IMG/VR virus record: IMGVR_UViG_3300045988_081431
Coordinates: 1 to 64,000 of that record
Source: a virus
Length of the DNA stretch: 64,000 bases
Direction: 5' to 3' (one strand)
The notes below the pieces were generated by a model, which was not told the DNA's origin, searched no databases, and saw only the letters and a program-made list of their open reading frames with translations. Of the stretch, positions 1,275-54,156 are shown piece by piece; the stretch's first letter is position 1; the number at the start of each line of letters is the position of its first letter. A program made the position numbers and the translations under genes.

Positions 1275-1309
1275 AATCACCATCATAGGATGGTGATTGC
1301 TTTATTTTT
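1275..1309 (+). terminator. rho-independent terminator-like hairpin in the ORF-free region
   Basis: 10-bp perfect stem AATCACCATC / GATGGTGATT with loop ATAG, followed by GCTTTATTTTT. Confidence 0.5.
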
Positions 1310-1664
1310 AGTCAGACTAACAACAGGGTGCAGCCAAAACTTTGTCACTCCAAAATCACAACACTAGGTCGATGCTTGTGAAAATCCGTCACGATACTAT
1401 GGGTGTGTTTTCCAACGTACATTCGTTCGATTTTATCCCATGTGGGTCAAATGCTGTCCAACCCAAGCACCACCATAGGTTTATGACACCAGCCTAGTAT
1501 GACGTGAGTAAAAACGCATGGGTGAAATTTTACTCATTCCCCTGTTATGGGGCATTTTTTACTCATATATTCAAAAAATTTTTTCAAGTCCGAAAACATA
1601 GATGGCTACTGGGCGGAACGGTATTTTACACGAATCGTGTAACATGAAATACAGGATTTTTAGT

Positions 1665-1710: not shown

Positions 1711-2024
1711 GAGTTTTAACTTGAGGTTTTAAAGCAAATGAGTTCTTGAAAGAGTTTTAAGAAACAGTTTTGAAAAGGCTTTTGCTCGAGCCTTAAGAAA
1801 CCGACTTGAAAGACACTCCGTAAGGAGTATTGCGAAGCAATCTAAAAGGAATACTCTTAAGAATACTTAAGTATTAAACATAAGTATTAAACCTATAAGA
1901 TTGTCTTCGACAATAAACACTAACGTGTTTGCTTCATAGTCAGATATTATGTTTGTGACTTAACCCATTAACATACATGTGAGACATACGAGTGAAACAT
2001 ACATCATCAATCCCAAGAAACACA

Positions 2025-2367: not shown

Positions 2368-2898
2368 TTATAAAGCCATAATGGCGTAAACCTTGTTGTT
2401 TAATTCCTCGGTTGTGATACCAATGTATCTCATTGTAATTGCTTCCGAGGAATGATTAAAGACTTGCATAAGGTACGCAATCGGTACTCCCTTACGGTAT
2501 GCGTGATACCCAAATGTTTTACGCATGGAGTGTGTACCGATGTTATCTAAACCGCATTTCACGGATGCAGCCTTGATTTTTCTCCATGCTTGTACGGTTG
2601 AAATATGACCGTCACCAGAGCGACTTGGGAATAACCAATGCTTGCATCGGCTTGCGTATTCGCATAACAATGCGTAGACCTCTTTGGATAACATGAACCG
2701 TTTGAACTTACCTGTTTTTTGTTCATATAGTTCCATCTCTGGTTTAACATCGTCAACGGTTAACCCAACAAGGTCGCTGATGCGGAGACCAGAGTTGATG
2801 CCAAGAGTGAACAACATTTTGTCTCGGTCATTACCGAGTGCTTGTTTCATTTCTTGGACTTTTGATAAATTTCTGATTGGTTCTGTTGTATTAGCCAT
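2368..2898 (-). CDS. tyrosine recombinase, catalytic domain only (176 aa)
   Basis: Motifs GLRISD (Arg I), HSMRKTF (H-x-x-R) and HSSEAITMRYI (His/Tyr). Start moved to ATG 2898, which is preceded by an AGGAGG RBS. There is no N-terminal core-binding domain. Confidence 0.75.
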   Translation of the reverse strand: MANTTEPIRNLSKVQEMKQALGNDRDKMLFTLGINSGLRISDLVGLTVDDVKPEMELYEQKTGKFKRFMLSKEVYALLCEYASRCKHWLFPSRSGDGHISTVQAWRKIKAASVKCGLDNIGTHSMRKTFGYHAYRKGVPIAYLMQVFNHSSEAITMRYIGITTEELNNKVYAIMAL

Positions 2899-3005
2899 GA
2901 TATATTTCCTCCTGTGTGTGTGTTTCCTGTTTCTACTTATATAATACACTATGGGATATATCATGTCAACAACTTTTTGAAATATTTTTTGGAGAATTTG
3001 ATATT

Positions 3006-3697: not shown

Positions 3698-5380
3698 ATG
3701 GCTGAAAATATCTTAGACACGCTACTAGGGGCATCTCGAGCGAACACAGAGCCAAGTGATAACACACCAACCGATAAAGATATTGGTGCGACTAACTTGG
3801 AACACTTCGCCAAGACTTATTTCCCCCATATATTCTCTACACCATTCTGCGACTTTCATCATTCGATGTTCAAGGATGCAGAAAATATGATACTGCATTT
3901 TGACAACTTGCAAAACAAGTTTGTTCGTGCGGCACCACGAGGTCACGGCAAAAGCCGTATTATCTCGGTCGTATTCCCAATATGGTTAATCGTGTATGGC
4001 TATCGAAAGAACATACTGATTATATCTGATACCTTTGAACAAGCCAAAGAGTTCATACAGACGATTAAAGACGAACTAGAAGATAATGAACGTCTGAAAA
4101 AGGACTTTGGTCTTCTCAAGGGTGACAAGACATGGGCAAGCGACAAGATTGTCACCAAGAACAAAATTCAAGTGTTTGCAAAGTCAAGCGGTCAATCTTT
4201 GCGTGGCTCTAGTTATAACAATATTCGACCAGAAGTTGTTATCTTAGACGACCTTGAGAATGACGAGGCAGTAGAAACAGAAAACCAACGCAAGAAATTA
4301 TACGATTGGTTCATGAAAGTATTAATGCCGATTGGCAATCCTAGAACGGTATTTTTGTATGTCGGTTCGGTATTGCACTATGAGGCTTTACTGTATAAAG
4401 TATTGACCGATTCTAAGTTTAACAACTGGAATCGTGCGATATATAAAGCTGTATACACGTTCTCTGAAAGTCCATGTTGGACCGTGTGGGAAGAAATCTT
4501 TAACGACTTGTCAGACCCAGATGCGGCAAAGAATGCCGCCGATTATTTTGAAGAACATCGAGAAGAAATGATGGATGGAGTCGAAGTAATGTGGGAGGGT
4601 CGTAACTTCGGTTTGTTTGAACACCTAGATTGTTCATACGAAGAAAAAATGAGAATGTCTCGTGATAACTGGTATCAAGAACTCATGATTTTACGTATGC
4701 AAGATGACGAGGCTTTCAACTCCGAGTATCAAAACAATCCTATGACCGAAGCAAGTCGAGTGTTTAAAGAGTCGTGGATTAAGGCTAACTATTATGACGA
4801 AACGAACTTACCTAAGATGAAACAGATATATGCATCTGTTGACTTGTCTATGGGTAAGTCAAGAACATCTGATTATTCTGCAATTATATTTGTCGGTCGT
4901 GGCGTAGATAATTATTTCTATGTATTAGAAGCCGACATTGAACGCAGGTCACCAGATATCATTATTAATGATATACTGTTGTATTTAGACAAGTACAATG
5001 GTCGTTTAGACGGCTTTATTGTCGAAGAAAACGTATTCCAAGAGTTCTTCTCGAAGACATTACAGCAGACTGCCATTGATATGGGTCTGTATGTAAACTG
5101 GATTTCTGCTCGGAGTACGGCGAGCGATAACAAGGGTACTCGGATACGCTCGCTTGCACCGAAGATTAAACAAGGGTATATCAAGTTTAATAAAAACCAT
5201 CGTGTTCTCGAAAGTCAACTTAAGAACTTTCCAAAAGACCACGATGATGCACCTGACTGTTTAGAACGGTGTATCTCTAAATTCTTAGAAAACTCATCAA
5301 CCATCAATGTTGGTGCGATGGGTACGATTCGTAAGAAACGAATGGACACATTATCATTCATGAAAGGTTGGAAACGATGA
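3698..5380 (+). CDS. terL: terminase large subunit
   Basis: Walker A-like 'APRGHGKS' and Walker B-like 'VVILDDLEND', about 560 aa, GGGAGG RBS 7 nt before ATG 3698, followed by the portal gene. Confidence 0.85.
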   Translation: MAENILDTLLGASRANTEPSDNTPTDKDIGATNLEHFAKTYFPHIFSTPFCDFHHSMFKDAENMILHFDNLQNKFVRAAPRGHGKSRIISVVFPIWLIVYGYRKNILIISDTFEQAKEFIQTIKDELEDNERLKKDFGLLKGDKTWASDKIVTKNKIQVFAKSSGQSLRGSSYNNIRPEVVILDDLENDEAVETENQRKKLYDWFMKVLMPIGNPRTVFLYVGSVLHYEALLYKVLTDSKFNNWNRAIYKAVYTFSESPCWTVWEEIFNDLSDPDAAKNAADYFEEHREEMMDGVEVMWEGRNFGLFEHLDCSYEEKMRMSRDNWYQELMILRMQDDEAFNSEYQNNPMTEASRVFKESWIKANYYDETNLPKMKQIYASVDLSMGKSRTSDYSAIIFVGRGVDNYFYVLEADIERRSPDIIINDILLYLDKYNGRLDGFIVEENVFQEFFSKTLQQTAIDMGLYVNWISARSTASDNKGTRIRSLAPKIKQGYIKFNKNHRVLESQLKNFPKDHDDAPDCLERCISKFLENSSTINVGAMGTIRKKRMDTLSFMKGWKR

Positions 5381-6672
5381 ACCTACGAGAAAAAATTTAC
5401 GCATGGATGAGTGCTTTCGTTACACGAGATACTATTGCCAATGTCACACAAACATGGTTTGGTCGTTGGGGTGTTAGAAAACGCAAAAACACGGAAACAA
5501 AGTTGAGTGTGGAAGCGTTACGAAACATGGCAAGAACACCTATTGCTAGAAGTGCTATTAATCAAATACGAGAGGGCATCCTAGCATTGCCATGGGAGGT
5601 TGTTTCGATTGACGATAACGAAAATAAAAAAGCAATTCGCAAAGTCACCGAGATAATTAAACAACCTAACCCTGTGGATGATTACCATGACTTCATTGGT
5701 AAACTATTTGAAGATTTAATTGTGTTAGACCTTGCGTTCTTTGAACAAAAGGTTGTCAAAAGGGATAGACCTCTGTATTTATTCCCTATTGATGCTCAAA
5801 CAATCGAGGTTGTCACAAATTGGACTGGCGATTTAAACCAGCCACGATATATGCAGAACGCTAACGGTGTTCAAGAGTGGTATAAATGTGACAAAATCGC
5901 TATGTTGCAACGAACGAAGCTGACTTATGATGAGTTTGGTTTTTCACCATTAGAACAAGCATATCGACATATTAAGTATCTATCTGAGGTACAAGAGTAT
6001 GCAAACGATATTTCTTCTAATGCGATGCCAAAGTATTTAATTAACCTTGGTGCAAACGCATCTCAAGAAGAAATTGAGAAAGTTCGAGTGTATATCGAAA
6101 GTGAAATCCAAGGTCAATCTGCCGTTGCGATTGTTGGTACAACACAATTAGATGCAAAACAAGTGTCTCCGATTGGTGACGAGTCAGCATCTCTAAATTG
6201 GCAAAAGTTATTACTACAGATTATTGCCACATGCTTTAATATTCCACCAGAACGACTTGGGGTTGCCATCTCAAATGACCGTTCGACATCATCTGAAAAA
6301 GACAACGAGATGTTGGAATACACAATTAAGCCATGGGCGAAAATATTTGAACGTGCCATCAATAAGTATGTCATTGACAGGCTTGGCTATGGTGGCAAAA
6401 TCGAGTTCCGTTTTGTGTTTACACCAACCAAGGCACAACAAGCCGATGCCGTTGAACGTGTTCGTAAACTTGTTGATGGTAATGTTATCACAATTAATGA
6501 GGCTCGTCAAGAACTAAATGGTGTTCTTGGTATTGAACTTCCTGATATTCAGTCAGGGAATAAACTCCTTGATGAATATAAATCATCTCTAATTGAACAA
6601 CGAGTGACATCCACCCCACAAGATGTTCCTTTGGAGAAATCTACGGAGAAAGGAGAGACAGACAATGAATAA
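5377..6672 (+). CDS. portal protein
   Basis: ATGA overlap with the terL stop, 431 aa. Size, position and the conserved-looking stretch 'PPERLGVAISN...EKDNEMLEYTIKPW' fit a portal. Confidence 0.75.
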   Translation: MNLREKIYAWMSAFVTRDTIANVTQTWFGRWGVRKRKNTETKLSVEALRNMARTPIARSAINQIREGILALPWEVVSIDDNENKKAIRKVTEIIKQPNPVDDYHDFIGKLFEDLIVLDLAFFEQKVVKRDRPLYLFPIDAQTIEVVTNWTGDLNQPRYMQNANGVQEWYKCDKIAMLQRTKLTYDEFGFSPLEQAYRHIKYLSEVQEYANDISSNAMPKYLINLGANASQEEIEKVRVYIESEIQGQSAVAIVGTTQLDAKQVSPIGDESASLNWQKLLLQIIATCFNIPPERLGVAISNDRSTSSEKDNEMLEYTIKPWAKIFERAINKYVIDRLGYGGKIEFRFVFTPTKAQQADAVERVRKLVDGNVITINEARQELNGVLGIELPDIQSGNKLLDEYKSSLIEQRVTSTPQDVPLEKSTEKGETDNE

Positions 6673-27892: not shown

Positions 27893-30800
27893 TTAAGCAT
27901 TATTTTGTTTTAATTCCAATGGTTTAACCTTGGTGATTGTGTCGCCACGCACTTGGATATAATACCCAACACCGACTTTGAGTTCCACCAAGTAGTTTGA
28001 CCACATAACATATTTGTTACCAACATGGTCGAATACATATGCCATAGGTTTGCCAGCCTTGGTTGTTTTCGTTTTGAAATCAGACACGATAATTGCCTTA
28101 ACGTCACGACCGTTTGCCAAATTCGTGTTATATGCTTTTAAAGGGTCTTCAAACGTACACCCAAGGTATTCATACCTAAGAGATACCACAGGCATCCTAC
28201 AGCTCAAATTTGGGCGTTCTATGAGCATTATAGAGTTGTACTTGTCTGTCCATTCTTGGATTTTCTTTTCGATGTTCTGTTTCTTTTTATCCAAAGACTT
28301 TAATTCTTTGTCAGAGAACAACCCATCGTTTGTATACATGGTGTCTTCGTGTTGTTGCAACTTGGATTGCCACTCATGTATTTTATCTAAAGCGTTCTTA
28401 CGGTCTTTATCATATGATTTATACTCAGGGATTAACGCCATGAGTTCATGTGTATTACCCAAGAAGTCCAATGCACCACTACCGACTAGACCCTGTAATT
28501 GTAACTTAGAGTATTTACTGAAGATGGCATCTATTGTGTATTCGTGTGGTTTTTCAATCTTGTTGATACCCTTGATGTACGAAAGACCAACACGCACAGA
28601 ACCATCTTCAACTGTCCATTCACGTTGACTGTGGCGTAAGTCAGGTGGTAAAATCTTGATGCCCTTACGTTGCATCTCTTGGATGTACGGCAAGATTTTC
28701 TCTTGGTTGCCATCTTCGGAGTTGATGGTTGCCACATAAAATTCAAGCGGATAGTGTGCCTTGAGATATGCCGTTATGTATGCCATGTATCCGTATGATT
28801 GAGAATGAGCCTTATTAAATCCATAACTTGCAGCCGCAATAATCTGCTCAAGTATCTGCTGTGCGACATTTGGGTCTGTTCCATTAGAAACAGCACGGTC
28901 AACAAATTCAGATGTAATCTCTTGCATTAAATCATGGTCTTTTTTACCAACCGCTCGTCTCACAGTATCAGCTTCCGCCATTGAATATCCTGCGATAATC
29001 TGACATACACGCATAATTTGTTCTTGGAATATCATGAGACCATATGTTTCACCCAAAGGCTCTTCCAATCGTTCATCCAAGTATTCAAACGGCTTGCCTT
29101 TTCGGCGTTCGATATACTCATCCAACATCCCTGTAATAATACACGCTGGTCTATATAATGCAACCACGGCGATTAAATCAACGAAGTTCTTTGGAGCAAC
29201 ACTCTTAAGAGTACGAACCATACCAAAAGATTTCATTTGGAATACGCCGAGCGTATCGCCCCTACATAGTAAGTCAAGCGTTTCTTTATCATCCCAAGGT
29301 AACTTGGCTAGGTCAAGCGTGTCTTTAACACCTGCCATCGTTACGCAATCATTGATTACATCCAAGGTTCTAAGACCAAGTATGTCTTCTTTGAGAAACC
29401 CCATTGACTCTAAATGTTTAAAGTTTGTGGATGTCACAAAGGTTTCTTCTTTTGTTTGAGAGTTCTTTTGCATCTCCAATGAGCAATACTTGGTAATGTC
29501 TTGGTTGGAAACAATGACTGCCGATGCGTGTTTACCAAAGCCAGTCATGATACCAACCAGCTTCTTAGCGAGTTCAAACATCTTAGGATGTTTACCATCG
29601 TTTACATAATCAAGTTTAGCATACTCAAGGTCATTATCGTGAAAATCTTCATCATCGTCAAAAGATACATCTTTGATTTTCTTTGAGTATGCATCTGCGA
29701 TATTGTGGTCTATATTAAGACATCGTGCAGCCTCTTTTAATGCTCCAGATGCTTTCATATATGAAAATGTACGACATTGGTATACATATTTGTATTTCTT
29801 TTCTAAGTAATCAATGACCTCTCCTCGTCTAACTTTAGAGCAATCGTTGTCGATGTCACCAGCAGATACTCGGTTTGGGTTTGCAAACCGTTCAAAATAC
29901 AAGTTGTTTGTAATAGCATCCAAAGATGTAATATCGAGTAAATATGCACACTCACATCCACCAACGGAATTATGGACTATCGTTTGATTCCCAACATATG
30001 AATGGTCTACTACCACTTGAATGTCATATACTGTTGTATCTTTTTGAGGAACAGATTCAATAGAGTGGACTTGATGAACAAAATATTCATCTAAATCTAA
30101 ATTAGGCTTTGCCGTCTTTTTAAATAAAGAGCAATTAAACCATTCACCAAACAATTCTACAAATCTCTCATAATAGGCTGGTTTAATAATCGTTTTATAT
30201 TCGTTGCACCAGTTCTCGTTAGCATGTACTCTTTTTGTAATATAACTATCAATACCAAGCGTTGATAACACGAATTTAACTTGAGAACATAAGTCGTAGT
30301 TAATTGAACTATAGTTTATTTTGTCTTTTGCTGTAATAACTTTTGGAACATAACCATCGGTAGAAAATAAACCCATTAGTAAATTAACCCTTTGTTCAAA
30401 AGTGCCGTGTACCAAAAAGTCAGGAATGTGTTTTGTACTTGCGTTCTCTCCAAGCATTTTTTTTAACACTTTAGCGAATACTGTAGAATATGTGTGTATT
30501 TGAACACAAGTATTTCTTTTATTCCAACTTTGAGATACATCGTGACCAAACAAAGATTGTACCAGAGAAATATAATCTTGGTGATACTTGCCTTGTTTAT
30601 TGTTGAAAGCACACCCAAAATTCCAGTTATTTTCTTTGCGAGTCCAGCCATTACCAATAAAATATCCAATAAATCTAGCAAGGTTTCCTGTGACTAGCAA
30701 CTCTGGATTGTATTTGTTTTTTACGGCTTCAAAATGTTGATTACCAAGAAAAATTAAACCATTTTCTTCTCTATACTCATCTAAGTAATCTCGAAGATTG

Positions 30801-32284
30801 ATTTTTTCTATAGCTTTGGTTGAGTCAGCAAAGCATTTTGGATAAAATACATAATCTCCTTTTTCTAATCCACTCACAGGCATCCATTGTGGCTCTGGTT
30901 TTATTTTATGACAACATTTTTTCTTGCAATTAACTGAGCAATATTTTCGTAATTTTGTATTACCATTATAAACAACACATTCTTTTTGTTTGATTGCAAG
31001 GAATTTATGGTCATTGGTATAGTTCATTGGGTCATTTGAAGACACTTTAATTGTAGTCAACGGTTCTTTAATATTATAAGAGAACACATTTTCTACTACT
31101 CTTGGATTACCTGTATGAGATACCACAATATCTCCAACACGAATATCTTCAATATTTTTAGTCATTCCATTAGACATTAATACTTTAGTGCCTTTTTCAG
31201 AGCATCCACGACCATGTCCAACTGGAATATCACGCTTTCGACAAGCATCGAGAATATCTTTGGTAATCAACAAGTAGTCCATATACCCAACTTGTTCCAA
31301 AATGTCAATCTCGTGCAACACACGCTCGTCAACACGCTTTTTAAATTCAGGCGTGACCTTACCGATAATCTTTTGTTTATATCCATCACGCAACGCCTGT
31401 AGAAACACAGGTTTTACATCCCCATCTTTAACAAACTTAGGGTACACATCTAGGTTGAAATCAACCTGTGTATTACATTTGTCAAAAATAACATTGGTGT
31501 TTTCAACCATTGTTTCAACCATATCAACACCGAATTGTGGATACAGACGGTCAAACACTTGTGCTTCCGATTGGATAAAGAAGTCGTTTGAACCATAGTA
31601 TTGGTCTTCATCATCATCTTGTGAACGACCACGGAATGCCTTGTGGAGTGCATAATCTTCTTCGTATACATAATGGCTGTCGCATGCGGCAATCAATGGA
31701 ACATCGTATTTTGCACCCATTTCTGCAACCATTTCATTAAACCGTTTTTGGTCTTCATGTTGGTACGTGTGGATTTCAAAATACAAGTCGTCACCAAAGA
31801 TGTCTTTGAACTGCGGAATCAGAGACTCACGGTTCTCACCCTTTAACCATCCACCCATGCATGCAGACGTGCAGATTAACCCCTCAGAATACTTGCGTAT
31901 CATATCAAGGTCACATCTTGACTTGTAATAATAATGCTTGTGTGCTTCACTAGTGAGTTTGAACAAGTTCTCAAGTCCGACTTGATTTTTCGCAAGAAAC
32001 AAGATATGATTATATGACTTGTCCTTAATGTGGACATCATATGTATAATACAATTCAGAACCCATCACAAGTTTTAAATCTGTGCCATGTTTCTTGTTGT
32101 ATTTCTGTAGATGCACATATGTTTCAATCAAGCCTGAACAACCATTATGGTCTGTAAGTGCAAACCCTCGTTGCCCAAGTTCGTGTACACGCTTAATGAT
32201 GCCATCCACAGAACTGATTGCATCTTTCATCCCATAGTTTGAAAACTGAGAGTGTAGATGCAGATGAATAAAGTTATCTGACAT
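27893..32284 (-). CDS. dnaE: DNA polymerase III alpha-type replicase (DnaE-like, PHP domain) containing an intein
   Basis: N-terminal PHP motif 'HLHLHSQFS...TDHNGCSG'. The palm motif 'VGHGRG'/'SVGG' is split by the intein. Conserved 'LGVFQMKS' and 'IALYRPA'-like stretches are present. AGGAGG RBS. Confidence 0.85.
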   Translation of the reverse strand: MSDNFIHLHLHSQFSNYGMKDAISSVDGIIKRVHELGQRGFALTDHNGCSGLIETYVHLQKYNKKHGTDLKLVMGSELYYTYDVHIKDKSYNHILFLAKNQVGLENLFKLTSEAHKHYYYKSRCDLDMIRKYSEGLICTSACMGGWLKGENRESLIPQFKDIFGDDLYFEIHTYQHEDQKRFNEMVAEMGAKYDVPLIAACDSHYVYEEDYALHKAFRGRSQDDDEDQYYGSNDFFIQSEAQVFDRLYPQFGVDMVETMVENTNVIFDKCNTQVDFNLDVYPKFVKDGDVKPVFLQALRDGYKQKIIGKVTPEFKKRVDERVLHEIDILEQVGYMDYLLITKDILDACRKRDIPVGHGRGCSEKGTKVLMSNGMTKNIEDIRVGDIVVSHTGNPRVVENVFSYNIKEPLTTIKVSSNDPMNYTNDHKFLAIKQKECVVYNGNTKLRKYCSVNCKKKCCHKIKPEPQWMPVSGLEKGDYVFYPKCFADSTKAIEKINLRDYLDEYREENGLIFLGNQHFEAVKNKYNPELLVTGNLARFIGYFIGNGWTRKENNWNFGCAFNNKQGKYHQDYISLVQSLFGHDVSQSWNKRNTCVQIHTYSTVFAKVLKKMLGENASTKHIPDFLVHGTFEQRVNLLMGLFSTDGYVPKVITAKDKINYSSINYDLCSQVKFVLSTLGIDSYITKRVHANENWCNEYKTIIKPAYYERFVELFGEWFNCSLFKKTAKPNLDLDEYFVHQVHSIESVPQKDTTVYDIQVVVDHSYVGNQTIVHNSVGGCECAYLLDITSLDAITNNLYFERFANPNRVSAGDIDNDCSKVRRGEVIDYLEKKYKYVYQCRTFSYMKASGALKEAARCLNIDHNIADAYSKKIKDVSFDDDEDFHDNDLEYAKLDYVNDGKHPKMFELAKKLVGIMTGFGKHASAVIVSNQDITKYCSLEMQKNSQTKEETFVTSTNFKHLESMGFLKEDILGLRTLDVINDCVTMAGVKDTLDLAKLPWDDKETLDLLCRGDTLGVFQMKSFGMVRTLKSVAPKNFVDLIAVVALYRPACIITGMLDEYIERRKGKPFEYLDERLEEPLGETYGLMIFQEQIMRVCQIIAGYSMAEADTVRRAVGKKDHDLMQEITSEFVDRAVSNGTDPNVAQQILEQIIAAASYGFNKAHSQSYGYMAYITAYLKAHYPLEFYVATINSEDGNQEKILPYIQEMQRKGIKILPPDLRHSQREWTVEDGSVRVGLSYIKGINKIEKPHEYTIDAIFSKYSKLQLQGLVGSGALDFLGNTHELMALIPEYKSYDKDRKNALDKIHEWQSKLQQHEDTMYTNDGLFSDKELKSLDKKKQNIEKKIQEWTDKYNSIMLIERPNLSCRMPVVSLRYEYLGCTFEDPLKAYNTNLANGRDVKAIIVSDFKTKTTKAGKPMAYVFDHVGNKYVMWSNYLVELKVGVGYYIQVRGDTITKVKPLELKQNNA
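29969..31204 (-). mobile_element. intein with LAGLIDADG homing-endonuclease domain (412 aa, residues 361-772)
   Basis: Begins with Cys ('GHGRG|CSEKGTKVLM'), has block B 'TNDHKF' and LAGLIDADG motifs 'LARFIGYFIGNGW' and 'LLMGLFSTDGYV', and ends 'TIVHN|S'. Removing it restores the DnaE 'GRGS' motif. Confidence 0.85.
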
Positions 32285-32320: not shown

Positions 32321-32349
32321 TTGACATTATATCACAAGTGGTGTATAAT
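32321..32349 (+). promoter_or_regulatory. sigma70-type promoter for the ssb operon
   Basis: TTGACA (32321-32326), 17-nt spacer, TATAAT (32344-32349). Confidence 0.65.
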
Positions 32350-32354
32350 TGCAA
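32326..32354 (-). promoter_or_regulatory. sigma70-type promoter for dnaE, sharing the same DNA as the ssb promoter
   Basis: On the minus strand: TTGCAA (32349-32354), 17-nt spacer with TGn, TATAAT (32326-32331). Confidence 0.55.
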
Positions 32355-32407: not shown

Positions 32408-33013
32408 ATGGCAAAAGTAATTGACAAAATCGTGGATGTAATGACTCCAGTTGGTGAGTCCGTGTTCTGCAAGATTAATGGTGTTGTTGATGACTATATG
32501 GGTCAAAACAAATACACAATCACCATTAAATTGGATGACAATGATGCCAAAGCATTACAGAAACAATTAACCGAGATTTGGGAATCATCCAACACTCATG
32601 ATGCACGAGTGGATGAAGAAAAAGAGGTTGATAGACCTAAGTTCCCAATCACGAAGTCAAAAGAGTATGGATGGCAACTAAAGGCATCTACCAAGACTGA
32701 GTTTACCGACAAAAACGGTAAGGTTCACGAGAATGTAATTCGTTTGGTAGACGGCAACAAAAAGCCAATGGATGAAAAGACTCAAATTTGGAAAGGGTCT
32801 AAAGTTGCATTATGGCTTGGTGCTAAACCATACGAAACACCAACGATGTACGGTGTGTCACTCAAACTCAAGGGTATCCAAGTTATCGACCTGATTACTG
32901 GCAGTGCAGGTGGTGCATTCGGTGGTTCTGCATCCGACAATGTACAATCCTATGAGGACTCTCCAATGACTGAAGCCTTTGGTGGCTCTGAGGATGACTC
33001 CATCCCATTCTAA
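32408..33013 (+). CDS. ssb: single-stranded DNA-binding protein
   Basis: 201 aa. Gly-rich linker and acidic C-terminal tip '...SEDDSIPF', like the bacterial SSB tail DDDIPF. It sits beside the replicase gene. Confidence 0.65.
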   Translation: MAKVIDKIVDVMTPVGESVFCKINGVVDDYMGQNKYTITIKLDDNDAKALQKQLTEIWESSNTHDARVDEEKEVDRPKFPITKSKEYGWQLKASTKTEFTDKNGKVHENVIRLVDGNKKPMDEKTQIWKGSKVALWLGAKPYETPTMYGVSLKLKGIQVIDLITGSAGGAFGGSASDNVQSYEDSPMTEAFGGSEDDSIPF

Positions 33014-33043
33014 TGTTTAAAACAACTGAATAATCCAAAATCA

Positions 33044-33071
33044 ACCCAAGTCAAACGGCTTGGGTATTTTG
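33044..33071 (+). terminator. terminator after ssb
   Basis: ACCCAAG / TCAAACGG / CTTGGGT, followed by ATTTTGG. Confidence 0.5.
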
Positions 33072-33123
33072 GCGTACAAACAATTATGTTGAAAATTTTG
33101 TGTCTAAATTTTGGTTTTCGCTA

Positions 33124-33152
33124 TTGACAAAATACAACTTTTGTGATACCCT
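33124..33152 (+). promoter_or_regulatory. candidate promoter (extended -10) of an ORF-free unit
   Basis: TTGACA, 17-nt spacer ending in TGa, TACCCT. The -10 element is weak. Confidence 0.4.
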
Positions 33153-33158
33153 ATCAAA

Positions 33159-33413
33159 CTTAAGTATTAATACATAAGAATACCTTAGTATATACCTAAG
33201 TATGAATACCTAAGTTTGCATACTAGGGTATGAATACTTGGGTATGAATACATTGGTTATTCATACCTATGGTATTAATACTTAAGTCTTAAAACTGTAG
33301 TTCCCCATACATATGTTTTCACTCTCTGTTTTTCTACTTAAGGTATTCATACAGTAGTGGAATACTTGTTTGGTAACATTAGTATTCTCATTACATTCGA
33401 ATACTAATGTTAC
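33159..33413. repeat. array of 10-bp palindromic boxes GTAT(G/T)AATAC plus long inverted repeats
   Basis: - Boxes at 33164, 33200, 33228, 33242, 33257 (rc-like), 33272 and 33343.
- CTTAAGTATTAATAC (33159-33173) is the reverse complement of 33272-33286.
- 10-bp hairpin at 33241-33267.
- 15-bp perfect inverted repeat 33373-33387 / 33399-33413. Confidence 0.8.
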
Positions 33414-33443
33414 AACGACAAACCATATGAATTGCTTCGCAAT

Positions 33444-33467
33444 AATCGGCAAGCCGATTGATTTTTT
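33444..33467 (+). terminator. terminator-like hairpin closing the ORF-free unit
   Basis: AATCGG / CAAG / CCGATT, followed by GATTTTTT. Confidence 0.45.
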
Positions 33468-33488
33468 CTTAGTCAGACAAAAACTTTC

Positions 33489-33517
33489 TTGACTATGAGA
33501 AACAGGTATGCTATAAT
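33489..33517 (+). promoter_or_regulatory. sigma70-type promoter
   Basis: TTGACT, 17-nt spacer, TATAAT, upstream of the gene at 33569. Confidence 0.6.
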
Positions 33518-33568
33518 GAGTGCATAACAAGTCAGAAACAAATTATTGACCGACAGGAGGAACAAATC

Positions 33569-33889
33569 ATGGAACCAGTAGTAAGTCCAATTTTAGTGTA
33601 TTTCATTTATTTAACTGACACGATTAAGATATTTGCTTTATTGATGGGTATTCTTTTATTGGCATTAGCATTAGCGTTTGATATGATAGAAGAACCAATT
33701 AAGTCTAAATGGGCATGCATTATTGGAGTAATTCTGTTCTTGATTGGGATATTTACTCCATCAAGAGAAGCTATTATTGCAATGATTGTGGCTCAACACG
33801 TTACACCAGATAACCTTAACATCGCAAACGAAGTTCTTCAAAACAATATTCATGATTACTTGACAATCATTCTTAATGCAAAACCATAA
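33569..33889 (+). CDS. small membrane protein
   Basis: 106 aa with three hydrophobic segments and an AGGAGG RBS. Confidence 0.6.
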   Translation: MEPVVSPILVYFIYLTDTIKIFALLMGILLLALALAFDMIEEPIKSKWACIIGVILFLIGIFTPSREAIIAMIVAQHVTPDNLNIANEVLQNNIHDYLTIILNAKP

Positions 33890-33900
33890 AGGAGCATACC

Positions 33901-34239
33901 ATGGCAACCGACTTTAAAAACCAAGACCAAAAGAAAAAAGCATGGACACTTGCCATGCAATACTTTAAGAAGTGTACCAAGAATGGTGCTTTCAAAAATA
34001 ACAAACCTACGTCAGAGTTCTTTAAGGTTCGCTCATTCTTCATGCAAATTGATGAGAACTCAATGTTGAAATTACATAAATACATGAACTCATTGGAATA
34101 TAAAGAAATGTCATTAACCGACTTGTTCATTAAAGCAAACGAGTTAAATGCCATTCAGTTCGCAAAAGCGAATACGAATACAACCGTCAGAGAACGCAAA
34201 CAGTTTGACATTGATAAATGGTTGAACGACAATGCGTAG
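33901..34239 (+). CDS. hypothetical protein
   Basis: 112-aa basic ORF with an AGGAG RBS. Confidence 0.55.
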   Translation: MATDFKNQDQKKKAWTLAMQYFKKCTKNGAFKNNKPTSEFFKVRSFFMQIDENSMLKLHKYMNSLEYKEMSLTDLFIKANELNAIQFAKANTNTTVRERKQFDIDKWLNDNA

Positions 34240-34666
34240 AGTCAAACAACTAGGGTTCTTGGTTGTAGACAAGAGAAAACCAAGACCAAGACGTAAAATC
34301 GAAGACATAAACATTAACACGTTCTTGACAAGACTAGGTGGTCACAAATATCTGACCAAGCTAAGAACATCTGATAAAGAAGAAGTGTTTCTTCAATTAG
34401 ACTCTATTGCATCTGTTCATAAATCTTTTGATTACCAATTAGTTGGTAATGCACTCAGGGTGGTCTTTGAGTCAGAGCCAAATCCTTTTGCACGAAATTG
34501 GAACATTGAACACATTGGCTTTGGTTCATACCAAAGAGACAAACGTTCATATCTGTTCATCTTTGATTATACCAAAAATGAAACATTTATATTCATCATC
34601 CGTAAACCATATCCAGAGACAGAACTCGAGATATGGGAAATGTCAGACTTAAATTATTGGGGGTAA
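34232..34666 (+). CDS. hypothetical protein
   Basis: 144-aa ORF that overlaps the upstream gene by 8 nt. Confidence 0.5.
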   Translation: MRRVKQLGFLVVDKRKPRPRRKIEDININTFLTRLGGHKYLTKLRTSDKEEVFLQLDSIASVHKSFDYQLVGNALRVVFESEPNPFARNWNIEHIGFGSYQRDKRSYLFIFDYTKNETFIFIIRKPYPETELEIWEMSDLNYWG

Positions 34667-34667
34667 C

Positions 34668-35300
34668 ATGAATACCGAAAACCATTTGATATACTTTAGA
34701 TTGTGGTACTCATTAGAGATACGTAAGAACTTGATTAAGTTACTGAATTTGATATACGAGCATGGGTATCAAACAATACAACCGACCAATGATGGCTTAT
34801 TGATTTTATCCAATGGAGATTACTTGACCTCTCTTAGACATAAAGACTTTTGTTATCTCGGAGAACAATCTGCCATGACTCATAAGGCTATGCCTGTGGC
34901 TCAATTCATTCAAAAACGCAGAGACACCATTAGACGGTCATTTAAAAACCATCAAGATATTATCAATGACATCGAAAAAACATATACTCAATTACTAAGT
35001 GTTATGGAACATGTGAAAAACCCATACAGTCCATTTGAAGAACTGTATCTGGTTGACCGTGAAAGAATTGTTCGTAACTCGACCATCAACAGTCATTTTG
35101 TGACTCACGTTGACCCAATTAGTGAGTATCTACCGTTAATCGAAGTCAGAGACAACAAGCCTGTTCCTGTGAGAGAATTGGTTAATACTTTGTACTTGCT
35201 AAAGTGTTGTTTTGATGATACAATAGATTACGAAGTTAACACCCTAGTAAAGAAACTACAGGAGGAATACAGTTGGTATGAATACAATCTCAACACTTAA
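34668..35300 (+). CDS. hypothetical protein
   Basis: 210-aa ORF with a GGGGG RBS-like stretch. No motif recognised. Confidence 0.5.
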   Translation: MNTENHLIYFRLWYSLEIRKNLIKLLNLIYEHGYQTIQPTNDGLLILSNGDYLTSLRHKDFCYLGEQSAMTHKAMPVAQFIQKRRDTIRRSFKNHQDIINDIEKTYTQLLSVMEHVKNPYSPFEELYLVDRERIVRNSTINSHFVTHVDPISEYLPLIEVRDNKPVPVRELVNTLYLLKCCFDDTIDYEVNTLVKKLQEEYSWYEYNLNT

Positions 35301-36192
35301 GTACAAAATCGACATTCAAGAACTTGTGGAAGAATACACCGAATTGTCACGAAACGGTGGTCGTATCCCAAGGGGTAAATGTCCGATATGTCATGGGGAT
35401 AACCCAACGGAGTTCTGCATCTTGGAAGACCGATATTACTGCCACAAATGCGGTTCATCTGGTGATGCAATTGGTTTTTATTCCGAAGTAGAGGGTCTAC
35501 CATTCTATCAAGCGGTTGAAGCCTTGGCTGAAAAATACGAGGTGTCTACGGACGACCCTGTGTATCAAAAACAAAAAAGCATCGTTGGTCAGAACACTAA
35601 AGTTGCCATTAAGTATCACAAAGCCGTTGATGCCGTTCGTGAATACATGAATGTTAAACGTGGCATTAATGATGAAATGTTGGAAGAATTTTTGATTGGA
35701 TATGACAAGGGTGGATTCTTGGGTGTACAATCGTCTGGTATTGTCATACCGATTCAAGATGCATATGGTCGTATCGTTGGTTTCTCCAAAAGACGATTGG
35801 AAGAAACGAATGAACCAAAGTATAAGAATACAAAAGAAGACGATGTGTTCGTCAAAAGACAACTACTTTTCAACTATCACCGTGCGGTTAAGATGTTGCA
35901 TCCGAATGGTGTACTTCATGTTGCCGAGGGTTATCTTGATGTCATGTCCGCACACCAACAAGGGATTCCATGCGTTGGGTATCTTGGTGGTCGATTGACA
36001 AAAGACCAGATTGGTTTACTCTGGGAGTTACAAAAGCGATACAATGGTGATATTACATTTGCATTAGCCGTTGACAATCCAGAGTGTGATGCCACAGGTC
36101 GTAAGGCATTGTTGAAGACACGAGAAGACATTAATAAATACGCACCAGATTTAAACGTGCGTGTGGTTAAATATCCGAAAAATGATGAGTAA
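35278..36192 (+). CDS. DNA primase (DnaG-type zinc finger + TOPRIM)
   Basis: CHC2 zinc finger 'CPICHGDNPTEFCILEDRYYCHKCGSSGDAIGF' and TOPRIM-like 'HVAEGYLDVMS' and 'ALAVDNPECD'. Confidence 0.8.
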   Translation: MNTISTLKYKIDIQELVEEYTELSRNGGRIPRGKCPICHGDNPTEFCILEDRYYCHKCGSSGDAIGFYSEVEGLPFYQAVEALAEKYEVSTDDPVYQKQKSIVGQNTKVAIKYHKAVDAVREYMNVKRGINDEMLEEFLIGYDKGGFLGVQSSGIVIPIQDAYGRIVGFSKRRLEETNEPKYKNTKEDDVFVKRQLLFNYHRAVKMLHPNGVLHVAEGYLDVMSAHQQGIPCVGYLGGRLTKDQIGLLWELQKRYNGDITFALAVDNPECDATGRKALLKTREDINKYAPDLNVRVVKYPKNDE

Positions 36193-44932: not shown

Positions 44933-45024
44933 GGATGGTTGTCAGAGTGGTTTATTGAGTCTCTTTGCTAAAGAGATGTCGTTCATTAAAACGACCATAG
45001 GTTCAAATCCTGTACCATCCTCCA
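44933..45024 (+). tRNA. tRNA-Ser (anticodon GCU), class II with long variable arm, CCA encoded
   Basis: Hand-folded. Acceptor GGATGGT/ACCATCC, anticodon arm TCTCT-TTGCTAA-AGAGA, variable stem GTCGTT/AACGAC, T arm ATAGG-TTCAAAT-CCTGT. Confidence 0.85.
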
Positions 45025-45029
45025 TTTAT

Positions 45030-45104
45030 TCTTGGGTAGTTCAATGGTAGAGCATCTGGCTGTTAACCAGAGAGTTATAGGTTCGAGTCCTATCCCAAGA
45101 GCCA
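45030..45104 (+). tRNA. tRNA-Asn (anticodon GUU), CCA encoded
   Basis: Hand-folded. Acceptor TCTTGGG/CCCAAGA, D stem GTTC/GAGC, anticodon arm TCTGG-CTGTTAA-CCAGA, T arm ATAGG-TTCGAGT-CCTAT. Confidence 0.9.
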
Positions 45105-45107
45105 CGT

Positions 45108-45197
45108 GGAAAGTTGGCAGAGTCTGGTTTATTGCATCGGTCTTGAAAACCGAAGAACAGTAATGTTCCGTGAGTTCAAATCTCACACTTTCCTCCA
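45108..45197 (+). tRNA. tRNA-Ser (anticodon UGA), class II, CCA encoded
   Basis: Hand-folded. Acceptor GGAAAGT/ACTTTCC, anticodon arm TCGGT-CTTGAAA-ACCGA, variable stem GAAC/GTTC, T arm GTGAG-TTCAAAT-CTCAC. Confidence 0.85.
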
Positions 45198-45353
45198 GAG
45201 CCAAGATATGTGTGTTACGGCATCGTATCGCCGAACGAGTTCTTTAAGGGGTTCTCGTTCGGATGGCATACATCGTGTTAATTGGGTAATAGTCCAAGAG
45301 ACACGCATGATTTTTCCTCCTGACTGACTTGGGGTAAAACCCAAGTCGCTCAT

Positions 45354-45424
45354 GCACTCATAGTTTAACGTAAAACGGCGTTTTATCATCTTCCGTCATG
45401 CAAGTTCGACTCTTGCTGAGTGCC
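45354..45424 (+). ncRNA. tRNA-like element / degenerate tRNA (no foldable anticodon stem)
   Basis: 7-bp acceptor GCACTCA/TGAGTGC, D arm GTTT-AACGTA-AAAC and a canonical T arm GCAAG-TTCGACT-CTTGC at tRNA spacing. The 17 nt in the anticodon-arm position (GCGTTTTATCATCTTCC) do not pair. Confidence 0.3.
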
Positions 45425-53990: not shown

Positions 53991-54156
53991 AGAATTGATT
54001 ATTGACATTAGACGAATGATTGACATTTGTTGCTTGTTATTGATGAGTGGTTCATTCATCAGAACATTTGTTTTCAACGACCAAGAATGGCTTGGGGCGA
54101 TGTTCTTAAGCGTTGTAATCTTATGTATGTTCCCAAGAAAGGAGACTAAGAGATGA
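53983..54156 (+). CDS. small membrane protein (57 aa, below ORF-track cutoff)
   Basis: Translation: MDKELIIDIRRMIDICCLLLMSGSFIRTFVFNDQEWLGAMFLSVVILCMFPRKETKR. It overlaps both neighbours, with an ATGA overlap at its 3' end. Confidence 0.4.
   Translation: MDKELIIDIRRMIDICCLLLMSGSFIRTFVFNDQEWLGAMFLSVVILCMFPRKETKR

Follow-up and report, generated by a model that had tools for sequence, protein, structure and literature searches.

What does a stretch of phage DNA do that has a promoter, a dense array of short repeats and a terminator, and encodes no protein? The question is raised by positions 33124-33467 of the 64,000-nt window analysed here (positions 1 to 64,000 of IMG/VR record IMGVR_UViG_3300045988_081431), which represents most of the genome of an uncultured siphovirus-like phage. 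This stretch, referred to below as the unit, is a real, strongly conserved and unannotated promoter-to-terminator unit of ~310 nt that is free of open reading frames (ORFs), and it lies between the genes for a Gp2.5-like single-stranded DNA-binding protein (SSB) and a DnaG-type primase. Every element listed for it by an earlier, sequence-only reading was found, at most one base from where it had been placed. That reading did not consider an origin of replication, and a transcription-coupled origin is the best fit to the position of the unit in the replication module. We tentatively interpret the unit as a cis-acting transcription-coupled replication origin, or origin-control region, with iteron-like repeats. 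Transcribed non-coding origin or control elements with repeats are a known kind, and the form found here is new in that a short transcription unit encloses a tandem array of 13-14-nt repeats and a hairpin domain that covaries, with orphan genes next to it and a second site that co-varies with it.

A conserved putative transcription unit in the replication module

The unit opens with the predicted promoter P1 (33124-33152, plus strand), in which TTGACA (33124-33129) and TACCCT (33147-33152) are separated by a 17-nt spacer containing TGTG (33142-33145), in agreement with the TTGACA promoter with a 17-nt spacer, TG and TACCCT that had been described at 33124. With TTGACA, 17 nt and TGTG-A-TACCCT, P1 has the features of a sigma-A extended -10 promoter of the Gram-positive TRTG type. 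The TTGACAAA box, the TG and the TACCCT of P1 were kept in all the loci recovered independently via the SSB or the primase, while the base separating TG from TACCCT was A or C among relatives, which is the pattern expected of an extended -10 promoter. The -35 box, TG-n-TACCCT and the region after the predicted start were retained in every relative, with conservation equal to or above that of the SSB coding sequence. Upstream, the unit is bounded by the hairpin that terminates the SSB gene (ACCCAAG...CTTGGGT, 33044-33065), which is terminator-like and conserved in sequence in all relatives, followed by a stretch with A/T tracts (33070-33123, plus strand) that is AT-rich in all relatives though its sequence varies (52-73% identity). 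Judged from its composition, this stretch could serve as an UP element or in DNA unwinding; neither it nor the array, which has a GC content of 0.30, contained a specific unwinding element of the 13-mer type.

At the other end, the terminator-like hairpin of the earlier description was confirmed, with a stem at 33443-33460 followed by ATTTTTTC. This hairpin B (AATCGGC-AA-GCCGATT plus a run of six T residues, 33444-33467, plus strand) has the GC-rich stem and T run of an intrinsic terminator, placing the predicted 3′ end of the RNA near 33466; the T run after it is weak in the sister clade. The downstream boundary is the strong promoter P2 (33489-33517, plus strand; TTGACT, 17-nt spacer, TG-n-TATAAT), which is conserved in relatives and heads the operon p106, p112, p144, p210 and primase. 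The claim that ~420 bp lack a credible ORF stands in substance, and the gap was measured as 555 bp, from the SSB stop at 33013 to the ORF start at 33569. Only TTG-started ORFs of 82 amino acids (aa; minus strand) and 40 aa (plus strand) occur within it, none keeps its frame, length or start codon in relatives, and no GGAGG-type site precedes any start codon in the unit as read from the sequence. The idea of a discrete ~310-nt transcription unit is backed by the conservation of promoter, start and terminator, together with the covarying hairpins described below.

The octamer TAGTCAGA lies directly 3′ of the terminator (33470-33477, plus strand). It has three plus-strand copies in the window (1309-1316, 1937-1944 and 33470-33477), each sitting a few bases after a terminator-like hairpin and T-rich run, and its variant AAGTCAGA occurs at 33529, 3′ of the P2 -10 box.

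The unit was found at ~90 loci in at least 45 distinct versions, always at one genomic position, between the SSB gene and the p112/p144/p210/primase block. Four independent routes led to these loci, namely the SSB (13 loci), the primase (35 loci), an invariant 29-mer, and the promoter pattern in metagenomes (30 loci). The gene order is DnaE (minus strand), SSB, unit, p112, p144, p210 and primase, and the array is present in close relatives with this same order. An invariant 22-mer had no match in the GTDB representative bacterial genomes, so no host or prophage copy was found there.

Identity to the window, taken over seven representative relatives, differs along the locus. It amounts to 66-81% in the SSB coding sequence, 66-90% in P1, 71-90% in the first two repeats, 40-73% in the middle of the array and 61-88% in the long-hairpin region. 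The degenerate 3′ repeats are 97-98% identical within the window clade and 41-65% outside it, and hairpins A and B are 81-96% identical in window-type clades, whereas the sister clade has different hairpins instead (30-37%).

The most distant relative, L145, whose primase is 53% identical and whose GC content is higher, has no box array after the SSB gene. It carries a GC-rich non-coding stretch of ~640 bp between DnaE and SSB (4740-5376) and a 130-bp gap after SSB (5920-6050) with the long-range inverted repeats GGCCCTT/AAGGGCC and GACACCTTGG/CCAAGGTGTC; no Rfam match was obtained for these non-coding stretches.

An array of direct tandem repeats

The interior of the unit had been described as seven copies of a 10-bp palindromic box. 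Exact GTATKAATAC boxes were found at 33164, 33200, 33228, 33242 and 33272, and those at 33257 and 33343 proved to be in reverse orientation or to carry one mismatch. The spacing of about 12-28 bp given for them was incorrect, since the start-to-start distances are 36, 28, 14, 15, 15 and 71; the period is 14-15 nt once degenerate copies are counted. Allowing at most one mismatch, the window has 34 matches to GTATKAATAC, where shuffled sequence has 12.7 ± 3.9; of the 34, 19 (both strands counted) fall inside 33164-33352. A position-weight-matrix scan found no comparable box cluster elsewhere in the window.

Read in register, 33159-33366 resolves into ~15 repeats of 10-15 nt with the form YTWRG-GTNTNAAWAC. 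The first two (CTTAAGTATTAATAC ATAAGAATAC, 33159-33183, plus strand) abut the predicted start, are the best-conserved part of the array and contain the ACATAAG motif common to the second site described below. The rest (33184-33366, plus strand) consists of 12-15-nt repeats with a period of 14; those at 33301-33366 are degenerate in the window clade and still recognisable in the L011-L013 clade. Across clades the array holds 12-15 tandem direct repeats, which recur every 14 nt (every 13 nt in the sister clade), and its GC content is 0.28-0.31. Tandem Repeats Finder reported period 14 with 5.4 copies, and the autocorrelation at lag 14 has z = 5.9 in the window and z = 4.2-7.1 across window-type clades, with the peak of the sister clade at lag 13 (z = 5.2).

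Palindromy follows a different distribution. Dyad centres, spaced by ~7 bp in the window, exceed the number in shuffles there (10 vs 3.9 ± 2.0) and in the sister clade (7 vs 2.5 ± 1.7), whereas the L011 clade shows no enrichment (5 vs 3.2 ± 1.7). The GTAT(G/T)AATAC palindrome is only the form that the repeat takes in the lineage of the window, and because direct periodicity is universal and palindromy lineage-specific, the conserved property of the array is direct tandem periodicity.

Two foldbacks noted earlier within the array were reproduced, a 10-bp hairpin (33241-33250 with 33258-33267) and a long-range complement, which is 100% paired over 16 nt (33158-33173 with 33272-33287) instead of the 15 nt first reported. 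The 16-nt stem is not kept in relatives, RNAalifold found no conserved secondary structure of the array, and the minimum-free-energy folds of individual sequences differ among relatives.

Outside the array, a strong single box, GTTGGTATGAATAC, lies at 35272-35285 at the p210/primase junction, overlapping the primase start codon. Other isolated strong boxes (9174, 24545, 28162 and 46866) are all within coding sequence and may be chance matches.

A covarying hairpin domain at the 3′ end

The perfect 15-bp inverted repeat reported for the 3′ part of the unit was verified (33373-33387 with 33399-33413). It forms the core of a long-hairpin region (33366-33418, plus strand) in which an invariant flanking helix, TTGT/ACGA (33366-33369 with 33415-33418), containing an invariant U·G pair, encloses the 15-bp stem and an 11-nt loop (33388-33398). 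At least 10 stem variants occur among relatives. In a nine-sequence alignment, scored against 500 shuffles and slid alignments, seven of the 15 pairs were altered on both sides and none on one side only, and 98.5% of cells were paired; the covariation score was reached by none of the 500 shuffles, and the slid controls collapsed. Many variants have a one-base bulge in the 3′ arm, and the 11-12-nt loop TCAC(T)TACGTTC is nearly invariant. A covarying stem that tolerates a bulge and carries a conserved loop points to a folded single strand rather than to a double-stranded palindromic protein site.

The two smaller hairpins vary in the same manner. Hairpin A (ATTGC-TTC-GCAAT, 33431-33443, plus strand), a 13-mer found only once more in the window, on the minus strand at 1829-1841, is replaced by ATCGC/GCGAT in L030, ACGGC/GCCGT in the sister clade and ATGAC/GTCAT at the second site, and hairpin B occurs as AACCGCC/GGCGGTT and AATCGCC/GGCGATT.

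The loop of the long hairpin may have a pairing partner. An invariant heptamer located 13 nt upstream of the stem (GTAGTGG, 33354-33360, plus strand) is complementary to loop positions 33388-33394 (TCATTAC), and a 7-bp helix between heptamer and loop is possible in all the main clades. The window-type pairing is GUAGUGG with UCACUAC and that of the sister clade UAAGUGA with UCACUUA, which amounts to two fully compensatory positions and one change from G·U to A-U; the loop variant of the window itself retains the pairing through an extra G·U pair. This suggests that the heptamer is a candidate pseudoknot strand, or takes part in an alternative pairing, in a comparison with few independent events and uncertain steric feasibility. 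The G·U pairs favour the plus strand as the functional one. On the other hand, both strands fold equally well (z = -8.1 and -8.0) and the variation in the stem is all Watson-Crick, so that RNA and single-stranded DNA are indistinguishable by these tests. As for known families, a gathering-threshold Rfam scan of the whole window, the check that had been suggested, matched only the four tRNAs, and an E-value scan of 32800-33800 gave only chance matches to microRNA models (at most 25 bits vs thresholds of at least 81 bits).

A related second site 31 kb away

Related boxes noted at 1850-1890 turned out to be real. They belong to a small related element, site 2 (1815-1944, plus strand), within an ORF-poor region of ~2 kb, where ACTTAAGTATTAA-ACATAAG at 1865-1884 matches 33158-33178 at 20 of 21 positions. 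From 5′ to 3′, site 2 comprises a hairpin ACTCC/GGAGT (1815-1828), ATTGCGAAGCAAT (1829-1841), which carries the hairpin-A 13-mer on the minus strand, boxes amounting to about four repeats (1849-1892), a hairpin-A-like ATTGTC-TTC-GACAAT (1900-1914), a further hairpin (1916-1929) and TAGTCAGA (1937-1944); no promoter is evident. The site is conserved in relatives recovered via the neighbouring gene for a 198-aa tyrosine-recombinase-like protein, and its hairpins covary (ATTGC/GCAAT vs ATGAC/GTCAT). The motif ATACATAAGWAT has eight matches in the window, against 1.5 expected, and all except one at 54117 lie in the unit or in 500-2050.

The array and site 2, which are 31 kb apart, change their box type together between clades. 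Both carry AAGTATTAA(T)ACATAAG in the window clade and AAGTTT(T)AAAACATA in the sister clade, with GTATTAA(T)AC in the former corresponding to GTTT(T)AAAAC in the latter. Such a concerted change is best explained by a shared sequence-specific trans-acting factor, with gene conversion between the array and site 2 as the alternative.

The region containing site 2 (1-2070) is ORF-poor and repeat-rich, with a GC content of 0.335. Near-perfect palindromes of the CATATGAACACGTGTTCATATG type occur around 550 and 700 and ACAATCGTT repeats around 200-240 and 960-1080, terminator-like hairpins lie at 1274-1299, 1540-1552 and 2029-2074, and four plus-strand sites (694, 1145, 1181 and 1493) match CCTAGTATR exactly, against an expectation of about one. 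This region could represent genome ends, early promoters or a second origin. A T7/SP6-like promoter function for TTGACWCTATA near site 2 was rejected, because the motif is not enriched and no gene for a single-subunit RNA polymerase is present.

A hypervariable core with two orphan proteins

Between clades, identity is 92-97% in the DnaE N-terminus and 91-98% in the primase, and it falls to 67-68% in SSB, 37-38% in p144 and 32-35% in p210. The drop from SSB to p210 marks the stretch from SSB through the unit to p210 as the hypervariable core of an otherwise conserved replication module. The genes p144 (34232-34666, plus strand) and p210 (34668-35300, plus strand) are clade-restricted orphans. 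In the p210 protein the N-terminal half varies and the C-terminal half is conserved, and an exhaustive HMMER search of 1.84 billion proteins returned only four clusters of it at 50% identity; in p144, a basic N-terminal arm precedes a beta-rich core, which varies, and an acidic-aromatic tail, which is conserved. An AlphaFold2 model of p144 (pLDDT 77) found no fold match with a TM-score above 0.36, and the model of p210, which was poor (pLDDT 54), found no fold match. Position and parallel divergence make p144 and p210 candidate binders of the array.

The module is also sharply mosaic. Over 32408-36192, compared with L111-L144, the primase is 96-98% identical to the sister clade, SSB 67-68% and p144/p210 32-38%, and the clade with the nearest SSB (85%) has a primase at 92-93%.

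A possible transcription-coupled origin

In the mechanism that we infer, in which the firing of P1, the binding of a protein and any role in replication are all conjectural steps, host RNA polymerase would start at P1 and transcribe ~310 nt, through the AT-rich array of 12-15 iteron-like 14-bp repeats and then the structured 3′ domain, and would stop at hairpin B, just short of the strong P2. Transcription, the transcript (as an R-loop or primer), or both, could open or prime the DNA. The repeats might serve as a loading platform for a phage-specific protein, for which the adjacent hypervariable p144 and p210 are the best candidates, while the long hairpin and its conserved loop would act as a folded single strand, either RNA or displaced DNA. 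Site 2, with its few similar repeats, could give the same factor a secondary place to bind or exert control.

The invariable location of the unit inside the replication module at ~90 loci counts in favour of an origin. The number and sequence of the repeats vary between clades while the flanks stay fixed, which matches how iterons evolve together with their initiator. An origin is preferred here because it accounts for most of the promoter and terminator, the array, the 3′ domain, the position, the hypervariable neighbours and the second site.

The closest parallel comes from Lactococcus phages of the c2 group, whose origin lies in non-coding DNA flanked by two early promoters of the same direction, PE1 and PE2; PE1 gives a non-coding transcript, PE1-T (PMC7150918). 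The length and the sequence or structure of PE1-T were suggested to be crucial, and chimeras of different origin types were non-functional (PMC7150918); the Ceduovirus types are c2, bIL67 and 923. Distinct sequence types within an otherwise conserved phage group are a feature of both systems (PMC7150918). Both are free of ORFs and ribosome-binding sites and are flanked by two co-directional sigma-A promoters, predicted ones in the case of P1 and P2; the distance from the first -10 box to the second -35 box is 332 bp in the c2 record (EP1 to EP2) and 336 bp here. The first promoter gives a non-coding transcript of a few hundred nt in c2, and one of ~310 nt is predicted from the sequence here. 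On a plasmid, the c2 origin needs no phage proteins to work, whereas adjacent hypervariable proteins are the suspected partners in our case. By analogy, the unit would resemble the c2 origin in its mode of working without being a member of the c2 family.

The array itself has its counterpart in iteron origins. Origins with repeats and a co-evolving initiator are known from the lambdoid O protein and its ori, iteron plasmids and P1 incC/incA, and in lambda, transcription through or near the origin is required. As in these systems, tandem units lie next to AT-rich DNA (here with only candidate protein binding), the sequence and number of repeats differ among relatives, the neighbouring protein is half variable and half conserved (here p210), and a second repeat cluster may occur elsewhere (here site 2). 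The differences are that the repeats of the unit are contiguous and of 13-14 bp, that the whole array is inside a short transcription unit with its own terminator, and that no DnaA boxes were seen and no Rep, O or DnaD-type initiator domain was recognised in the adjacent genes.

Several points weigh against an origin. Classical iterons are 17-22 bp long, and the present repeats are shorter. Cumulative GC skew shows no inflection at the unit and only tracks gene orientation. With c2 there is no sequence similarity, and the unit belongs to none of the types c2, bIL67 and 923; the c2 origin has no 14-bp tandem array or similar repeats, and it lies between divergent early and late modules, whereas the unit lies between the co-directional SSB and primase genes. 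The proteins p112, p144 and p210 gave no Pfam, PHROG-function or PDB-profile match and contain no recognisable initiator, helicase loader or DNA-binding domain, and the co-variation of p144 and p210 with the box type could reflect physical linkage alone. Finally, a functional RNA on its own would be just as compatible with the G·U pairing of loop to flank and with the conservation of promoter and terminator.

Alternative explanations

Such a free RNA, which we consider rather unlikely, would be a trans-acting non-coding RNA of ~310 nt whose 12-15 repeats of 14 nt form a multivalent platform sequestering or scaffolding a phage or host RNA-binding protein. Its pseudoknotted 3′ domain and terminator hairpins would give stability or a second binding surface, and it would regulate early or middle gene expression or a host function instead of DNA replication. 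Many of the observations above agree with this, including the conserved and uniformly plus-directed promoter, predicted-start region and terminator, the covarying hairpins, the loop-heptamer pairing, which is compensatory between clades with G·U pairs valid only in plus-strand RNA, the invariant U·G pair in the flanking helix, the absence of a conserved ORF, and an array that conserves direct and not palindromic periodicity. They are offset by the lack of an Rfam match and of conserved secondary structure in the array, by the equal folding of both strands, by stem variation that is Watson-Crick on both sides and does not separate RNA from DNA, by the sister clade, in which hairpin B has no proper T run, and by site 2, which has no evident promoter; nor does a reading of the sequence reveal any known RNA motif for protein binding, of the GGA type or otherwise. 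A search of the rest of the window for antisense targets returned only short box-driven matches. The sponge RNAs of the CsrB/RsmZ type are ~300 nt long and have a dozen or more copies of a short motif with their own promoter and terminator. The unit is similar in length, in its many short repeats and in its predicted promoter and terminator; it differs in that the repeat is a full 14-nt tandem unit, with no conserved GGA, no GGA in the hairpin loops, no known partner and no Rfam match. A more specific version, to which we give less credence still, is a new class of phage non-coding RNA with CsrB-like logic in a gut Firmicutes phage, in which the array would be a sponge or scaffold for p144, p210 or a host factor, the 3′ third a pseudoknotted hairpin domain, and site 2 an element read by the same factor. 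Readings as a 6S-like RNA or a CRISPR-repeat-like element were rejected, as no model matched and the repeats are far too short.

The array could also act as double-stranded DNA, a lattice bound by a phage regulator from +1 onward, as is site 2, and functioning as operator, roadblock or nucleoprotein filament. The regulator would shut off or pace P1 and local transcription, with the RNA as a by-product. This is unlikely in our view, although it would explain why the motif family is restricted to two non-coding regions with co-varying box types and why the best-conserved repeats begin at the predicted transcription start. It also agrees with the palindromic repeats of the window clade and the dyad enrichment shared by the sister clade, with ACATAAGAAAAT on either side of P1 in the sister clade (near -45 and near +25), and with an inverted copy, CTTATGT, upstream of P1 in L001. 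It leaves the covarying, bulge-tolerant hairpin, the conserved loop and the conserved terminator unexplained, however, and the L011 clade has no excess of palindromy, the array has a poor position for controlling P2, and no helix-turn-helix or ribbon-helix-helix protein was recognised among ~45 ORFs scanned. The related proposal of the sequence-only reading, an operator array for a dimeric regulator of early genes, keeps its palindromic boxes in this lineage and is otherwise weakened, because palindromy is lineage-specific and the array lies 120-330 bp from P2, between a promoter and a terminator of its own. Other kinds of repeat element seem very improbable. The layout of promoter, tandem repeats and terminator resembles type III antitoxin loci, but a ToxI-like decoy would have repeats of 34-44 nt rather than 13-14 nt, and no toxin family match was found downstream of the unit. 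A partition centromere is suggested by the resemblance of contiguous short repeats to parC and parS arrays, although the ORF scans detected no ParA, ParM or TubZ and recognised no lysogeny module; in particular, ~30 ORFs other than p112, p144 and p210 yielded no Par ATPase and no helix-turn-helix or ribbon-helix-helix regulator. For a target of the 198-aa recombinase (2368-2964), the dyad symmetry of site 2 and its distance of ~420 bp from the 3′ end of the recombinase gene would be suitable; across relatives from other clades, however, the box type differs although the recombinase keeps 81-91% identity, and the contigs with both sites all have them in the same relative orientation, with no sign of inversion. 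An FLP-like inversion of genome halves between the two sites was rejected on the same ground, since all contigs with both sites share one arrangement.

These readings are not mutually exclusive, as the transcript and a bound protein could both contribute to an origin. RNA-based origins without a Rep gene are known elsewhere: in cluster A mycobacteriophages, prophage replication origins require a small non-coding transcribed region (PMC7157519). Like these and ColE1 RNA II, the unit is a small non-coding region, predicted to be transcribed, with no Rep protein gene. Those systems serve plasmid-prophage maintenance next to parABS, whereas no par system is present here, and they come from another host phylum and have no sequence relationship to the unit.

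If the transcription-coupled origin is true, the unit would give a first handle on how replication starts in these DnaE/DnaB/DnaG phages, extend the c2-type design of a transcribed non-coding origin to another phage lineage with an iteron-like array added, and put forward two orphan proteins as an origin-recognition module of a new kind. If it is a free RNA, it would represent a new family of repeat-containing structured RNAs. Either way, it is a compact, strongly conserved and easily cloned element and a useful marker for a group of human-gut phages.

Genome context and neighbouring genes

The window has a GC content of ~0.38 (range 0.34-0.43) and encodes a large terminase subunit, tail proteins of 1658 and 1486 aa, an amidase, several methyltransferases and four tRNAs; judged from their sequence, its promoters and ribosome-binding sites are apparently of the Firmicute type. 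The phage belongs to a clade without a cultured relative, and its large terminase subunit is at most ~36% identical to that of any deposited phage. A blastn search of 32900-33700 against 50,697 deposited phage records returned no DNA match, and neither did a tblastn search of the SSB against the INPHARED cultured phages. Related contigs of 64-73 kb came from IMG/VR samples and metagenome assemblies, one of them labelled human gut.

The replication genes comprise a DnaE-type polymerase with an intein, the Gp2.5-like SSB (32408-33013, plus strand), the DnaG-type primase (35278-36192, plus strand), which is the last gene of the P2 operon, and a DnaB-type helicase. Divergent promoters near 32321-32354 lie between the SSB gene and the DnaE gene (27893-32284, minus strand). 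The latter encodes 1463 aa including an intein with a LAGLIDADG domain, and relatives (the loci compared were L027, L028 and L030) have shorter versions, of 1219 and 1313 aa; in L030 (1879-5876), DnaE is split into ORFs of 400 and 619 aa around a free-standing HNH endonuclease gene.

The first gene after P2, p106 (33569-33889), encodes a small hydrophobic protein that is absent from nearly all relatives. No IMG/VR relative of it was found; it was seen only in the window and in L030, which has a 48%-identical counterpart, and it looks like an inserted accessory (moron-like) gene.

The 198-aa tyrosine recombinase near site 2 (2368-2964, minus strand) consists of the catalytic domain only (Pfam Phage_integrase, E = 9e-24) and is 81-97% identical in related contigs. 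The phage has no recognised repressor or partition genes, and the protein could be a dimer or concatemer resolvase. The four tRNAs form a cluster at 44933-45424, with Ser-GCT, Asn-GTT, Ser-TGA and Ile-TAT.

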